From: a bacterium
Lineage (GTDB): Bacteria > Oederibacteriota > PGYV01 > Palsa-1178
DNA: 64,000 nucleotides
Assembly: GCA_037138355.1 (NCBI GenBank)
Contig: JBAXIL010000001.1
Span: forward strand, 1 to 64,000
Reading direction: 5' to 3'
A program made the position numbers. Shown here piece after piece: positions 27,001 through 33,000 of the stretch (positions are counted from its first letter, which is position 1; each line of letters starts with the position of its first letter).

Positions 27001-30000
27001 TGCAGTGTTTGAAGGTTTTGGAACACTATTAATGAAAGGCGCATATCCTTACGCATATATATTCATAGATATCAATCCTGCTTTAGTAGATGTTAATGTA
27101 CACCCGACTAAAGCTGAAGTAAAGTTTAAGGATGAAAGATTTGTTTATAATTGTGTGCGTTTAGCAATTGATGCAGCTTTGAAAAAAAACGAATTGACTC
27201 CAGCGGCATATTTTGGAACAGGCATAGATGGTCCTACTGCTACAGACATAAAAGATGGAGCACAGCAAGCCATCAATGGATTCTTTGCAAATGAATCATC
27301 AAGATTATTTAATAATACGCAAGTTGAATACACAAAAAGCGGTATTGAGGCTCACACAAAATCTCAAACAAGAGCTTATTTGTGGTTAAGAGCTTTAGGA
27401 CAAGTACATAAAACATATATTGTTGGTGAAGATGATAATAATCTTGTTGTGATTGATCAACATGCGGCTCATGAAAAAGTACTTTATGAAAAGATAATGG
27501 ATGATATCGAAAAAAACAGCTTAAAAGTTCAAGAACTGCTTATTCCTGAAATTATTGAAGTCGCACCTCCTGAAAAAAGAGTAATTATGTCAAACATAGG
27601 AGTTTTTTCAAGACTTGGATTTTTTCTGGAAGAGTTTGGAGAAAGAGATTACAAAATTTCAGCACATCCAGTCATAATAAGAAATAAGGCCGCAGCGCCA
27701 TTTGTAAAAGAAATAATAGGAACATTAATGGATAAAGATAAAGCCAACGAACATGATATATTAAAACATCTCTGTGCCACTATGGCATGTAGGGCTGCTG
27801 TAAAAGCAGGCGATATACTAAATGATGCAGAAATAACGGAGCTGCTTAATAATTATGTAGAGTTAAAAGATCCACATTCCTGCCCACATGGTCGACCGCC
27901 AATAATAAAAATACCATTTGATGAAATTGAAAAAATGTTTAAGAGAAAATTATAAATTAGAATTAAATTATTATTAATTTTTGTTCTTGGGAAAAAACAT
28001 TAGGAGCGTAGAATGTATATTATTGTAACTGGAGCCACTGGTACTGGCAAGTCTGCTGTGGCTGTTGAACTGGCAAAGAAAATTAATGGTGAAATAATAT
28101 CTGCTGATTCCATGCAGGTGTATGTGGGTATGGATATAGGCACATATAAGATATCCAAGGAAGACACGCAAGGGATAAGCCATCATTTATTAGATGTGGT
28201 AAATCCTTGGGAAAAGTTCTCAGTAGCACAGTTTAAAATTTTGGCGGAAAAGGCATTAAATCACATAAAAGGAAAAGGCAAAATACCTATAGTTGTTGGT
28301 GGTACGGGCTTGTTTATAAACTCGCTTACGCGTGGGATATTGACTTCTAAAGAGCCTTCTAATGAACTAAAAAGTCTTTTGAGAGTTGAACTTGAGGAAA
28401 ATGGTCTTGAGGCACTTGTCAATTTATTGAATAAAAAAGACCCCGAGGCAGCATCGTTAATTGATATTAATAATAGTCGGAGAGTACTTAGGGCACTTGA
28501 ACTTATAGAAACTAATAAAATGAGTTTAAGCGAATTAAGAAAAACAACAGAGAAAAACCGGTATAAAGATGATTATAAATTATTTGTTTTGGAAACTGGC
28601 AGGGAATATATGTATTCAAGACTTGATAAAAGAGTTGATGAAATGATAAAAAGCGGATTGTTAAATGAAGTAAAAGTCCTTATGAGTAAAATCAATGCAT
28701 TAAGCATGACAAGTATGCAAGCCATAGGATATAAGGAAACCACGGAGTTTTTAAATGGAAATATAAATATGAATCAAATGATAATAAATATAAAACAGGC
28801 CACTCGAAATTATGCAAAAAGACAGCTTACTTGGTTCAAAAAATATGAGGAAGCAATAAGAATTAATATGGAACGCATAACCCCTGTAGAAGCAGCAAAG
28901 GAAATTCAGGATAAGTTGTAGTACTATATGAGTATGGAATAATCCAATAAAGGCAGTACTGAGTGCAATATTTAGCATTATTCAGTTAATTAATTAGCAT
29001 AGTTCGATTCATTAATAGAGTCAATCACAGAACAAAACAGTGAAATCGGGTTGCAGATAAGACATATTGAACTTATCTTATTTGATTGTTTTTTATTGGT
29101 TTTATCCATATTTAAAAGCTATTAAAATGTAATTGACATAAAGAATTTATTATGTTAAATTTACTCACTTGCAAAGAATCTATTGTTGCAACAGGTTTTT
29201 ATATATTGGAACATTATATGCATCGGAGGATACTGTGCGTAAGAGCATATTTCTGTTTTTGTCTTTATTTATTTTGGTTTTAGGTGCTAATTCTTTAATT
29301 TTTTCTGACGATTATTCTGATACTCGTCTTATTACTTGGGAAAAAGTTAATGAGCCTTTCTTTAATAAATGGAATCCTTATGGAGTAGGCGCGAGAGCAA
29401 TGGGAATGGGCGAAGCTTTTTCTGCAATTGCGGACGATGCTTCAGCCGTATATTACAATCCTGCTGGATTGGCACAAATGGATCACAATGAATTATCATG
29501 GACGGGTGGAAGTGATTATAGCTCTGCTCCATACACAAATTTCGCAACATTTGATATGGCTTTAGGTGGACAATATTTTGCTTTGTCTTATTTAAAACTT
29601 TATCATCCTATTGGAAGATATCCAGACAAAATAGTAATTCCAGCACCAGGTGTTGGACCTGTTCCAGGTAATTTATATTCGACACAACCTTTATTTATTC
29701 CAAGTGGACTATACGAAAATTGGTTTGGTTCTTTACAAGCATCACAACAAGATTTACTTGCTAAGATGTACAGAGCATATATCAATCTTCCTTTTCAAGA
29801 AAATCAGGTAGCTTTAACTTATGCCACATCTCTTACAAGTGACAAAAGTTTTGATTTTGGAATAAATGTAAAATATCAATATACTGATGCAGCGGCAGCA
29901 AAGGTTCTTGGTTCAGCATATGATGCTTGGGCTTGGTCAATTGATTTAGGTTTTCTTTATAAAATCCGTTTGATTGAATTCCTTAAAGATTTTAACATAG

Positions 30001-33000
30001 GTATCATGCTTCGCGATATTTCTGGTAGGGCAAAATATTTTAATACAGGTGTAGAAAAACCTTTGTATTTCACATCCACAGTGGCTCTTTCTATGAGAAC
30101 AACAGAATTAATAGAGAATGAAATAACAAGTTTGTCTGTTGACTGGGACGCTGTTAATGATGCTGGCGTTTTTGTTAATGAAGCAAACAGATTGAAATTT
30201 GGTTTTGAACAGTGGTTTATTGATGGTCATTTTGCTGTACGCAGCGGACTTGTGTTTCCTATGAACCAGCAGCCATGGAGAATGTCTTTTGGAGTTTCCG
30301 CAAGATATTTGCTTGGCATAGATTACGCTTATGTACGGGGAATACCTTTTGATGCTAAAGCAGAAAATGAAGGTGATAGTCACTGGTTGACTCTATACTG
30401 GATGTGGGGAAAAGTTGCAAGAAAAATGCCTATGCCAGATGTTTTTGCAGCAGTAGAGCCAATATCATTCTCCCCAAGAAATGGCGAAACCGCAATTTTT
30501 AAAGTTAATGCGACATCAAAGGCAGGTATAGATAGATGGGCTTTGAGTATTCTTGATAAAAATAATAATTTAGTAAAAACTTATGTTGATATAGGAAATC
30601 CACCATCACAGATAGTGTGGAATGGTTCAGATAATAAATATCTACTTTTACCAGATGGTGAATATACTTTTATATTTGAAGCTACTGATAAGCTTGGCAG
30701 TACTTCATCAACACCTGTGCAGACAGTTAAAATTTACACTCCTGTTATAGAAGGAGTAAGTCCTGAAGCGTTAAATAAATTAAGACAATTATTAAATCAA
30801 TCAAAAGACAGAGATGTTGCAGAAGATATTGGAGAATTGAATTCAGCGAAAAAAGGAGTAGATGATCTTAAAAAAGCAAAGGCAAAACCTACTCCTCAAG
30901 AACCCCCATTACCAGCAGCGGGTTATAATACGCTTCCGGTAATTGCGGGAACACCAGGAGTATTAGGAAATGGATTAACTGGAACGGCATCCCCAATAGA
31001 TATTGTAGGATTTCCAAATATAGATTCTGGCGCGATTAGGTCGGCATATATATCCACAGGCGCAGATGGCGATAGACAATTTAATATGGATTATGTAACT
31101 ACTAATACTTTACCTAAGTATGTAATTAAAGAAATGAGTCTTATGGTAAAATCAATTGCAGAAAGTTTAGGATATTCCGTAGATAGGATAGGAATCAACG
31201 CCATTTATGGCGGTAATAATAATATGAACTTATCAGTTCCGATTGCGCAGGCGGAAAACTACCAGAGAGGTACAATCTCAGTAGACCAAATGTTAAGGGG
31301 CGCAAGTATTAATCTGAACGGTGAGATCATATATCCCAATTTTTAGGAGCGAGCCATGAAGAAAAAGTCATTTGTATTGTCTTTGCTTTTTGTGTTAATT
31401 GCAACATTTGCTTTTGGTGGAGCTTTTGATAAGGGTGGAGTTTTAGGTATAGGTGGTAGAGCTACTGGCATGGGAAATGCCTTTGGTGCTGTCGCTGATG
31501 ACGGAAGTGCTGTATACTGGAATGCGGCGGGATTGACACAAATGAACAGGCCCGAATTATATATATTTTTAGGACCTTTATTAAACGGAAAAGAGTGGTA
31601 TTCTTTCTTATCATTTGGTTCGCCTTTCTTTGAGGATACAGCTTGGCAGTTATCTGTAATGTCTCTTATTCATAGTGATACGAGTAATACAAAAGAGTTC
31701 ACTGTAGTTGGGAGCTTTGCTTCAAACCTCAATCTTGAAAGAACTTTTTCTGTGGGTATTAATATAAAATATCTTAATTATATTTCCACAGCTCAATTCA
31801 CGACAACTGATGGCGTTAATCTTCAGGGAATTGCACATGGTTTAGGACTTGACCTTGGAGTTCTATATCAAATACCACTTCCACAATTGGGTAAGAAACT
31901 TAACTTTGGATTATTCATACAGGATATAGATACTAATATTGATTGGTCAAATGGAACAAGCCAAGAACAAATTCCTACAGTGTTTAAAATTGCATCGGCA
32001 TATTATCTTGATGACAATCTTGTTATTACAGCTGATTATGACTTTTTTAAGGATTTAAATATAAGTGGTATTCCACTCTCAACTCCAATATATGATTCTG
32101 CTTCTGGTGTCACAATCACAGCTTTAGTGCCACAGGAAGATAGACTTCATGTTGGTTTGGAAAGTTGGTTTTTTAAAAGACATTTAGGACTTCGTGGTGG
32201 TTATACAACTTTTGCAACAATGCCAGGAAGGTTTACAGGCGGCGTATCTTACCGTGAAGATGCATGGCAAGTTGATTATGCCTATATAGGTCACGCTGAG
32301 CATCTTGGAGATTCACACAGATTGTCTGTTGCTTTAAGATTTGGCCAGCCAAAAGAACAGATAAGAGCGATTACTGTAGTAGCTCCTCCAAAAACATTGG
32401 AAGCATATGCAGCAAATGCTTCAGCAAACTTGACATGGGAAATAAATACAGATCCAAATATAACTGGTTATGCAGTATACATGAGCAAATCACCAGGAGC
32501 AAGATACATACCAATAGCTAAAAGAATAAAAGAAAATTATGTAACCATAGATGGACTTCAGAACGGTACCAGATATTATTTTGTAGTTGCTTCTATTAAC
32601 AATACTTATCCTTCGGTTGAGAGTGCTTATTCAAACGAAACTTCAGCTGTCCCAGCACCTGTTGTTCCTGGGGTTCCTGAAATATTCCCAATTTCTAAAG
32701 TCGCTAAAGTACAAAATAATGGAGTTGTAGATATTGCTTGGGGTAATATGCCAAATGATAGAATGGCTGGATACAATATCTATATAACAGAAACACCGGG
32801 AACTGGTTATAATAAATTAAATGCAGTTCCAGTAAAAGATGTTCATTATTTAGTGAGTGGCCTGGAAGTTGGAAAGAAGTATTATTTTGTAATGACATCT
32901 GTTACAAATGATACACCTCCAGTAGAATCGAAATTTACTAAAGAGTTTAGCTATATAGCAAAACCTGGAAAATAGTTTTTGGAGAAATGAGAAATATTCA

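Follow-up and report, generated by a model that had tools for sequence, protein, structure and literature searches.

The known job of the PorV family is to handle type IX cargo. The PorV, PorQ and PorP-SprF proteins (PDB 6h3i chain F, NF033709) are 14-stranded FadL-type barrels that act as membrane anchors for other proteins, and a single genome encodes many such paralogues, each with a partner of its own. Around the flagellar L and P rings, at the height of the outer membrane, lineage-specific accessories encoded with the flagellum are found in Vibrio (the H-ring of FlgT, FlgO and FlgP) and in Campylobacterota (the FlgP basal disk); they are lipoproteins or lipid-anchored soluble periplasmic proteins. 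In other bacteria the bushing is fixed to the outer membrane by lipoproteins (the FlgH lipid anchor, FlgO, FlgP, FlgT), and to our knowledge every accessory structure that makes this connection consists of lipoproteins or of soluble proteins in the periplasm. Basal-body genes can also be kept while flagellin is missing, as in the hook-basal bodies of Buchnera. Excerpts of PMC7688988 and PMC9927559 describe the same combination for the FT3SS remnant of Lysobacter enzymogenes.

The window, the whole 64,000-nucleotide stretch of DNA analysed here, carries two adjacent genes, g17 and g18, whose products fall in the same sequence family as PorV, PorQ and PorP-SprF and are likened to them by profile matches. 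Unlike those proteins, g17 and g18 have no sorting-domain cargo gene beside them, they follow one of two flagellar gene sets (type A, below) and not SprA, and their chains include long, putatively periplasmic Ig/fn3 tails. They differ from the H-ring and basal-disk proteins in being predicted integral barrels of no related sequence; neither has a Pfam or NCBIfam match indicating FlgT, FlgO or FlgP homology. Compared with Buchnera and L. enzymogenes, the type-A set is complete up to the hook and FlgK, keeps stators, C-ring and L/P rings, is conserved in many free-living species and has gained PorV-type barrels. The features of the locus are as follows.

29133..29161, + strand: sigma-70-type promoter, TTGACA, 17 nt, TAAATT with TG upstream
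29162..29234, + strand: conserved leader, TTGCAAC .. TTTTT TAYATATTGRAAT, with GGAGG ribosome site (12 order-level upstream regions aligned)
29235..31346, + strand: g17, 703 aa, GTG start; signal peptide, PorV-like barrel, Ig domain, linker, C-terminal domain
29367..30419, + strand: g17 barrel, residues about 45-395
30432..30749, + strand: g17 Ig-like domain, residues about 400-505; Pfam FlgD_ig, E 2.5e-7
30750..31034, + strand: g17 charged, proline-rich linker, residues about 506-600 (alignment)
31035..31343, + strand: g17 C-terminal domain, residues about 601-703; family-specific
31356..32975, + strand: g18, 539 aa; signal peptide, PorV-like barrel, two fn3 domains
31419..32348, + strand: g18 barrel, residues about 22-331
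32373..32960, + strand: g18 fn3 domains 1 and 2, residues about 340-436 and 440-535; Pfam fn3, E 4.3e-11
33023..34633, + strand: flgF and flgG (rod; Pfam)
34647..37375, + strand: flgA, flgH (L ring) and flgI (P ring) (Pfam)
37446..41006, + strand: flgJ (rod-binding domain only), flgM-like gene, flgN, flgK
41020..41050, + strand: intrinsic terminator, 14-bp stem

Family and domains of g17 and g18

An earlier note on this DNA had placed two open reading frames with PorV-like barrels here, and we recovered both their positions and their family matches. The most likely start of g17 is GTG 29235, which is preceded by a GGAGG ribosome site and gives a protein of 703 aa, and on sequence inspection the N-termini of both proteins resemble signal peptides. 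Against the NCBIfam profile PorV_fam (NF033709, the PorV/PorQ family; curated cut-off 90 bits), g17 scored 66.5 bits (E 3e-18) and g18 scored 88.9 bits as a protein (E 4.7e-25), or 89.8 bits in a genome scan and 90.9 with in-frame neighbours. With 66.5 and 88.9 bits the two proteins lie at or below the family cut-off, a difference from the known type IX barrels; 15 other PorV paralogues of the window's genome scored 91-178 bits. The match of g18 covered profile positions 12-326 of 326 (residues 33-329), with F329-G330 invariant at the barrel end, and the g18 family profile matched PorV chain 6h3i_F at E 6.4e-4. With the g17 family profile, residues 196-395 aligned to residues 146-398 of 402 of the same chain (E 7.4e-5), and in the alignment the barrel ends on an aromatic ...YWMW motif. 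A search of the ESM Atlas with g18 yielded PorV-type leads only.

Sequence comparison demonstrates that g17 and g18 are sister paralogues within the FadL-type PorV/PorQ barrels, derived by tandem duplication from a PorV/PorP-type barrel. In a quick tree with SH-aLRT support only, both fall within the radiation of PorV paralogues, closest to those next to cargo genes, which supports the earlier proposal of an origin in the type IX PorV shuttle family. The closest g18 paralogue in genome G015 sits between rsfS and purA.

Beyond the barrels the two proteins differ, Pfam recognizing FlgD_ig in g17 and fn3 in g18, the latter with PDB fn3 matches down to E 6e-35. Compared with distant orthologues, g17 is most strongly conserved in its Ig-like domain (39% identity), its barrel having 29% and its linker 19%. 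The g18 barrel reaches 43% identity with its own distant orthologues, in genomes where FlgH and FlgI give 40% and 47%. Within the genome, the g17 Ig domain is closest to the Ig domains found in a PorV-Ig-Ig-OmpA protein. A profile of the g17 C-terminal domain run against 1.84 billion representatives gave 34 matches, nearly all of them C-termini of g17-like proteins; seven long repeat proteins represent partial matches to type IX cargo. No PDB relative of this domain was found, and the ESM Atlas gave no usable match.

Operon, gene order and occurrence

We predict that g17 and g18 open an 11-gene unit, g17-g18-flgF-G-A-H-I-J-M-N-K, running from the sigma-70-type promoter to the only strong plus-strand terminator between 28800 and 41200. 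Eleven of 12 aligned loci of the order share the -35 box, an extended -10 box and the spacing between the two. No consistent sigma-28 or sigma-54 promoter emerged from a simple pattern search of the regions preceding g17 orthologues, and no Rfam family matched upstream of g17 or within the window. The genes are closely spaced, with 9 nt from g17 to g18 and 47 nt from g18 to flgF (the first gap ranges from -11 to 96 nt, and the second is 10-58 nt in nine relatives). Contigs from RNA libraries of one sample, 100% identical, map to g17, g18 and flgF to flgN, one of them spanning the g18/flgF junction (32880-33055); this support is weak because such libraries can contain DNA. The same contigs leave 27000-30005 and 39024-42000 uncovered and, as contig data from a single sample, are uninformative on transcript ends.

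The pair is flanked by miaA on one side and flgF on the other. Counting one genome per species, g17 preceded g18 in 46/46 loci and flgF followed g18 in 47/48 evaluable loci; these counts leave out locus L118, an fn3-only fragment of 32% identity and uncertain orthology at a contig start with no flgF within 2.7 kb. The link to flgF is kept at 35-40% identity and across families whose upstream neighbours differ, and in 20 loci flagellar genes lie on both sides of the pair (fliA-fapA-..-flhB-like-g17-g18-flgF). The one genome that the earlier note had reported with the pair apart from flgF was confirmed: in the single-contig chromosome of G004, ahcY and ribD flank the pair and flgF is 260 kb away, which indicates that co-transcription is not obligatory. 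Within the order, the reported identity of 66-83% and order-wide presence were obtained again, an orthologue being found in 20/20 sampled genomes.

The pair is restricted to the FCPU426/Goldbacteria lineage. Of 81 genomes, 49 had both an orthologue and FlgI, seven had FlgI without a clear orthologue, 24 had neither, and one had an orthologue without FlgI, on a contig that ends at flgG. Thus the proposal that the pair tracks flagellar genes held, with tight operonic linkage to flgF and no orthologue found in any of the 24 FlgI-negative genomes, in counts where related genomes are not independent and adjacent genes may be lost or missed together. The joint absence of pair and FlgI from G008 was set aside as uninformative because the contig with its flagellar genes breaks off 2.4 kb past flhA. 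Genome G073 lacks FlhA, FliG, FlgI and the pair, all of which share one cluster in its family. As with the H-ring and basal disk, the pair is encoded with and co-occurs with L/P-ring genes; for FlgO and FlgP, excerpts of 10.64898/2025.12.02.691832 and PMC13277936 report co-occurrence with flgA/H/I. A literature search on PorV with flagellar and L-ring, on Goldbacteria flagella and on FCPU426 found no paper describing the pair.

Two flagellar gene sets, one without recognizable filament genes

The FlgI tree divides the flagellar genes of the phylum into two gene-set lineages, A and B (split support 100/99), and the pair goes only with the type-A set. Five of the seven FlgI-positive genomes without a clear orthologue were placed in this tree, and all five fell in clade B, as did the second flg clusters of G026, G066 and G013, which are without the pair. 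A flagellated relative with a type-B set likewise does without it. The gene order that the earlier note had described as kept across the phylum is therefore kept in the type-A lineage and not in type B; similarly, its assignment of the pair to "the Goldbacteria flagellum" stands as a specific tie to flagellar genes, but to the type-A set and not to one single flagellum.

The type-A set includes motA, motB, fliL, fliM, fliN, flgD, flgE, fliK and flgK, and genomes with this set only have hook, rod, rings, C-ring and stators. Flagellin_N had no match in any of 44 pair-bearing genomes with a single type-A FlgI; Flagellin_C, FliD_C and FliS were found in 0/9 near-complete type-A-only genomes compared to 2/2 type-B controls, and a lineage-specific flagellin profile gave nothing better than E 0.58 in the window's genome and the type-A loci examined. 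As no flagellin, FliD or FliS was found for the type-A set, the machine served by the pair may not be an ordinary swimming flagellum. Sixteen of 22 type-A FlgH proteins have no Cys in their first 60 residues. FlgT_N and LPP20 (FlgP-type) had no match in the window's genome, and GldM was not found there; these are weak negatives in an assembly of 1.66 Mb compared to 2.7-3.4 Mb in the same genus.

Some type-A clusters contain further parts of type IX kind. All four f15/f18 genomes examined have the arrangement flbD-o493 (PorZ-like C-terminus)-two PorV_fam barrels, and the flgK-flgN interval of G004 encodes a PorQ-like barrel and a beta-propeller carrying a type A sorting domain. These extra PorV modules are absent from the order containing the window.

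Candidate roles of the pair

The pair heads a predicted rod/ring operon of a set without recognizable filament genes, which makes it a probable new component, in the outer membrane, of an unusual flagellar-type motor. In a more specific form of this reading, to which we give about an even chance, g17 and g18 would be dedicated outer-membrane subunits, with periplasmic tails, of the type-A flagellar-type motor of the FCPU426/Goldbacteria lineage. Each barrel would sit in the outer membrane, and the C-terminal tails (Ig domain, flexible linker and family-specific domain in g17, two fn3 domains in g18) would hang into the periplasm and bind either the outside of the L/P-ring bushing or the surrounding wall, so that the pair would form a collar, anchored by its barrels, that secures the bushing to the outer membrane; the reading also covers a part played in ring assembly only. 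A periplasmic position of the tails is suggested by the barrel profiles, which stop at residue 395 of g17 and residue 329 of g18, and by the closest relatives of the g17 Ig domain, whose single chain has a PorV barrel on one side of them and a peptidoglycan-binding OmpA domain on the other. According to excerpts of PMC9143113, PorP, a barrel of the same fold, binds the periplasmic wall-binding protein PorE.

Against a collar stand the G004 pair far from flgF, the still PorV-like character of both proteins and the type-B flagellar sets that work without the pair. An odd machine without filament genes also means that "bushing collar" may be too conventional. Instead, the pair could be part of the working output of a filament-less, torque-generating type-A motor that moves or handles PorV/PorQ-type barrels and the surface proteins they hold, a motor-powered counterpart of the type IX/gliding apparatus joining the two machineries, with g17 and g18 as its partners everywhere and more barrel-plus-sorting-domain modules in some families. 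The missing flagellin, FliD and FliS, the retained stator, C-ring and hook genes and the type IX-type parts within the f15/f18 and G004 clusters point that way. We nevertheless think this unlikely, as it is inferred wholly from gene content, no mechanism is known by which a rod inside the L/P rings could be coupled to barrels in the membrane, the window's own order has no extra PorV modules, and a long hook or an unrecognized filament protein could make an ordinary propeller.

Similarly doubtful, in our judgement, is that g17 and g18 are typical PorV/PorP-like barrels of type IX style, collecting or anchoring secreted cargo and owing their place before flgF to inherited gene order, with no functional link. 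Their PorV_fam matches and their nesting near cargo-adjacent paralogues fit such a role, as do the SprA and at least 17 sorting-domain proteins of the window's genome and the isolated position of the G004 pair amid housekeeping genes. An SprA-like gene also lies in the window (16674-22931), 6.3 kb upstream of the pair, whereas the earlier note had placed sprA ~400 kb away in relatives; in five other pair-bearing genomes the distance is 53 kb to over 1 Mb, or SprA and the pair are on separate contigs. Nearness to SprA was therefore rejected as a sign of a type IX role, because the distance is not conserved. SprA-like genes were moreover present in 5/5 tested genomes without the pair, which supports an occurrence of the pair independent of SprA. 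Eleven of 17 other PorV paralogues of the window's genome adjoin a gene with a type IX sorting domain, whereas the neighbours of g17 and g18 are none of these. Among 79 PorV-family metagenome loci, flagellar genes were seen only at the eight g17-orthologue loci with readable flanks. The absence of orthologues from FlgI-negative genomes and the persistence of the flgF link where sequences have diverged and upstream neighbours have changed argue in the same direction.

There is a slim chance that g17 and g18 serve generally to tether the outer membrane to the wall and are co-expressed with the ring genes to strengthen the envelope at the motor, without binding flagellar proteins. The g17 Ig domain, closest to the spacers of the PorV-Ig-Ig-OmpA tether, would suit this, and so would the long flexible linker and small terminal domain of g17, as in wall-binding proteins; that terminal domain, however, has no match among known wall-binding families, g18 lacks a counterpart of it, and absence from all genomes without type-A genes would be unexpected of a general tether. 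It is highly improbable that g17 and g18 are FadL-type uptake channels for hydrophobic compounds placed in the operon by chance: the Toluene_X (FadL) match at the g17 N-terminus (E 3.5e-4) is far under the Pfam cut-off, and conserved Ig/fn3 tails, paired paralogues and a strict tie to type A do not suit transport.

Newly recognized here are the two flagellar lineages, the restriction of the pair to type A and the type-A sets without filament-gene matches; also new are the location of most other PorV paralogues beside type IX cargo genes, which the pair does not share, and the presence of SprA in pair-less genomes. The candidates for localization are g17, g18 and the extra PorV modules. If the proposed outer-membrane role in the type-A motor is true, an integral barrel of a type IX family serving as bushing anchor would be a new building principle and the first structural bridge between the flagellar and type IX machineries. 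With dozens of free-living species having no recognizable filament genes, it becomes a testable question what purpose is served by a motor that has hook, rings and stators but no flagellin.

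The rod/ring operon headed by g17 and g18

The two PorV-like outer-membrane barrel genes g17 and g18 (the pair) head the flagellar rod/ring operon of the window, as laid out below.

Features of the window around the pair
16674-22931, + strand: SprA-like gene (TIGR04189: E 1.3e-61; 208 bits, cut-off 200)
after the SprA-like gene, + strand: fn3 protein of 1078 aa with a weak FlgD_ig-like C-terminus
between the 1078-aa fn3 protein and g17, + strand: mutL, miaA
29133-29161, + strand: sigma-70-type promoter with an extended -10 box
29162-29234: conserved leader, from promoter to start codon
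29235-31346, + strand: g17, likeliest start GTG at 29235 behind GGAGG
31356-32975, + strand: g18, directly after g17
after g18, + strand, in this order: flgF, flgG, flgA, flgH, flgI, rod-binding flgJ, flgM-like gene, flgN, flgK
41020-41050, + strand: terminator with a 14-bp stem, just past flgK

An AT-rich gap of 313 nt separates miaA from g17, and the gaps that follow are short (9 nt from g17 to g18, 47 nt from g18 to flgF). Because a promoter precedes g17, the gaps are short and the only strong terminator on this strand between 28800 and 41200 lies past flgK, the predicted transcription unit comprises 11 genes, from g17 to flgK. The GTG start and GGAGG ribosome site of g17 were kept in all 12 aligned upstream regions from the order. 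The leader, which reads TTGCAAC .. TTTTT TAYATATTGRAAT, then GGAGG and GTG, was likewise kept across the order, and an Rfam search with it returned no match. Three RNA libraries, all from a single freshwater sample, gave contigs that mapped at 100% identity to g17, g18 and flgF to flgN, and one of these contigs (32880-33055) spans the g18/flgF junction. These contigs are weak support for expression of the unit, since such libraries can hold DNA.

The SprA-like gene (2085 aa) is the sole SprA-like translocon gene found in the genome of the window, G000, and with the 1078-aa fn3 protein (16674-26148) it lies 3-6 kb upstream of the pair. Only families f1 and f2 share the arrangement SprA-x-mutL-miaA-pair. 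In five pair-bearing genomes SprA was 53 kb to more than 1 Mb away or on a separate contig, so the 6.3-kb proximity in the window is local. SprA-like genes were also present in all five tested genomes without the pair. Farther upstream, positions 1135-11726 hold several consecutive large proteins that look secreted and have no Pfam match (804, 730 and 796 aa), among CBM9- and CBM11-containing proteins and before a LacI-type regulator; this is possibly a glycan-degradation cluster.

Distribution of the pair and two flagellar gene sets

The families of g17 and g18 are both restricted to one lineage, with a sharp step in E-value (g18, 1e-84 to 1e-29; g17, 1e-109 to 1e-23); the source names of their members are Goldiibacteriota, Goldbacteria or FCPU426, plus automatic labels. 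Synteny was scored in 52 species-representative loci, three of which end at g18, with an fn3-only fragment (L118) excluded. We found g17 before g18 in 46/46 evaluable loci and g18 followed by flgF in 47/48, with g18-flgF gaps of 10-58 nt (9 loci, six families). The upstream context varied. In 20 loci (families of the f14/f15/f18 type) the pair sits within a flagellar supercluster, flhA-flhF-flhG-fliA-fapA-x-x-flhB-like-g17-g18-flgF, and in the order of the window and in f9 it opens a separate operon whose upstream neighbours are unrelated. As a specificity control, 79 metagenome PorV-family loci were picked by the N-terminal motif of the family; flagellar genes occurred at eight, all of them g17-orthologue loci, and a ninth g17-orthologue locus stops at a contig edge. 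The closest g18 paralogue in G015 lies between rsfS and purA.

Across 81 genomes of the phylum, the g18 orthologue was compared with FlgI as follows.

Occurrence of the g18 orthologue and FlgI in 81 genomes
g18 orthologue present, FlgI present: 49 genomes
g18 orthologue present, FlgI not found: 1 genome, whose contig stops at flgG
g18 orthologue not clear, FlgI present: 7 genomes (six in f13/f16, and G024 with a fragment only)
g18 orthologue not clear, FlgI not found: 24 genomes

The FlgI tree (32 rows, 28 of them different) separated into two clades with 100/99 support. Clade A (24 rows) takes in every FlgI from a pair-bearing genome in the tree, and clade B (8 rows) consists of the FlgI of five f13/f16 genomes and of second FlgI copies from G026, G066 and G013. 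Clade-B clusters carry a short FlgF (about 229 aa) preceded by genes for a sigma-54 activator and for a hybrid kinase, and are without g17/g18. The exceptions with FlgI but no pair that are in the tree have clade-B FlgI and therefore a different flagellar gene set; the pair thus tracks the lineage that we call type A. The type-B set (L129, L130 and L131 in G026, G013 and G066; L044-L048) includes flhA, a sigma-54 activator, fliA, a hybrid histidine kinase, short flgF, flagellins, fliD and fliS. It is the sole set in f13/f16 and an additional one in some genomes of the order of the window. The link of the pair to flgF, on which the earlier note had built, stood in all evaluable loci but one. 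The exception is the single-contig chromosome of G004, where metK/ahcY and ribD flank the pair and flgF is 260 kb away.

Gene content of the type-A set

The main new point is that type A, as judged by profile searches, is without recognisable filament genes. With E-values up to 1e-3 accepted, the Pfam model Flagellin_N, which also covers FlgL, matched in 13 of the 81 genomes: five pair-bearing genomes with two FlgI matches (G026, G042, G066, G013, G022), seven f13/f16 genomes, and G018 with a weak match (E 4.2e-7, 756-aa frame). It had no match in the other 44 pair-bearing genomes, which include G004 (one contig), G050 (3 contigs), and G015 and G021 (5 contigs each). Within the order, 3 of 21 genomes were positive, the same type-B carriers. 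Flagellin_C, FliD_C and FliS had no match in nine near-complete type-A-only genomes, versus matches in both type-B controls; a single sub-threshold FliD match came from G021. FlgD, the hook cap, had a match in 11/11 genomes. A lineage-specific profile based on 18 flagellin/FlgL sequences from the phylum's type-B clusters, searched unfiltered in all reading frames, gave a best E of 0.58 against G000 and all available type-A loci. Caution is due where a gene is missing from G000 alone: its assembly is 1.66 Mb in 91 contigs with 94% marker completeness, and the two genomes of its genus are listed at 2.7 and 3.4 Mb.

The type-A set (L031-L043, L067-L117, L213-L222; window 33023-41006) is otherwise complete, with flgB, flgC, fliE-fliJ (fliE, fliF, fliG, fliH, fliI, fliJ), motA, motB, fliL, fliM, fliN, fliO, fliP, fliR, flhB, flhA, flhF, flhG, fliA, fapA, fliK, flgD, flgE, flbD, flgM, flgN and flgK. 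Type-A-only genomes thus keep genes for hook, rings, C-ring and stators as well as FlgK. Several products of the set are large: FliK 769-874 aa, FlgE 610-632 aa and FlgK 714-821 aa (L213:2759-5383, L214:13311-15647, L217:11705-14014; window 38862-41006). Type-A FlgH (window 35623-35700 and 21 orthologues) has no cysteine in its first 60 residues in 16/22 sequences, with a signal peptide ending A-x-A / D-S-L; four f11-type FlgH carry a possible lipobox (VVAC/LLAC motifs). If FliK acts as a length ruler, the type-A hook could be long enough to form a propeller without flagellin.

Doud et al. 2019 (PMC7031533) noted flagellar genes in Goldbacteria, but the word flagellin is absent from its main text. 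Literature searches on PorV with the flagellar L-ring, Goldbacteria flagella and FCPU426 returned no description of the pair.

Architecture, origin and likely role of the pair

Both N-termini are signal-peptide-like. The NCBIfam PorV/PorQ model (cut-off 90 bits) matched residues 33-329 of g18 over positions 12-326 of 326 (E 4.7e-25, 88.9 bits) and g17 more weakly (E 3e-18, 66.5 bits), and the orthologue-family profiles matched the solved PorV chain 6h3i_F (E 7.4e-5 for g17, 6.4e-4 for g18). Each barrel closes with an aromatic motif (in g18 the invariant F329-G330, in g17 ...YWMW), just where the profile and the solved chain of PorV stop. Past the barrel, g18 has two fn3 domains. In g17 an Ig-like domain, matched by Pfam FlgD_ig, is followed by a linker that is charged and rich in proline, and then by a domain of ~100 residues. 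This last domain had no relative in the PDB and, in a search of 1.84 billion representative proteins, was almost confined to the ends of g17-like proteins.

The closest relatives of the g17 Ig-domain profile within the genome are two other PorV-family proteins. C3:74294-76330 and C10:3-1595 of G000 encode PorV-family barrels fused to two Ig domains, and further PorV paralogues bear TPR or fn3 tails. The C3 protein (E 1.6e-19 to the profile) reads barrel, Ig, Ig, OmpA-type peptidoglycan-binding domain; its Ig domains are periplasmic because they lie between the barrel and the OmpA domain, which must be periplasmic. In Bacteroidota, PorP, whose barrel shares this fold, binds PorE, a periplasmic protein that attaches to the wall (PMC9143113). 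From these features we infer that the g17/g18 tails also lie in the periplasm.

In a quick maximum-likelihood tree of PorV paralogues (SH-aLRT support only), the g17 (95) and g18 (97) clades were sisters (99), nested in the PorV radiation beside cargo-adjacent paralogues; the earlier note had proposed recruitment from the T9SS family. Families branch in the same order in both clades, and the pair therefore stems from one tandem duplication predating family divergence.

G000 holds about 19 PorV-family genes, and a type IX sorting-domain gene (FlgD_ig, CHU_C or Por_Secre_tail match at the end of the product) adjoins 11 of the 17 paralogues other than g17/g18, similar to the cognate barrel-cargo pairs of Flavobacterium. 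The pair has no cargo neighbour and is independent of SprA, and we consider it unlikely that the two are ordinary type IX barrels whose position was merely inherited. With the same low probability they might serve in the output of a motor that has no filament and acts on barrel-anchored surface proteins. Type-A clusters do hold further parts of type IX kind. In 4/4 f15/f18 genomes examined (L213:9851-13326 in G015, L218, L219, L220) flbD precedes genes for a protein whose C-terminus is PorZ-like and for two PorV_fam barrels (123 and 132 bits). In G004 (L214:2525-5470) flgK and flgN enclose genes for a PorQ-like barrel and for a beta-propeller that ends in a type A sorting domain. A general envelope tether seems slightly less probable again; the barrel-Ig-Ig-OmpA protein of G000 looks like a one-chain version of the PorP-PorE tether between outer membrane and wall. 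That the pair forms a FadL-type channel is very improbable.

The best-supported explanation, to which we give an even chance, takes g17 and g18 to be dedicated parts of the type-A motor in the outer membrane. For it speak their operon membership with rod/ring genes, their strict co-occurrence with type-A genes, their independence from SprA, the missing cargo neighbour, and a flgF link that outlasts every change in the other neighbours and holds at identities as low as 35-40%. Sequence constraint is like that of the ring proteins: for the same distant genomes the g18 barrel is 43% identical, FlgH 40% and FlgI 47%. FlgT- or FlgP-type proteins had no match in G000, which we also count in its favour, as we do the missing cysteine of most type-A FlgH. 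Against it, relatives are not independent, the pair can stand apart (G004), and the type-A machine is itself unusual. As motor subunits, the barrels would sit in the outer membrane with their tails in the periplasm, where the tails would probably hold the L/P-ring bushing or the surrounding wall, a job done by lipoproteins in other bacteria.
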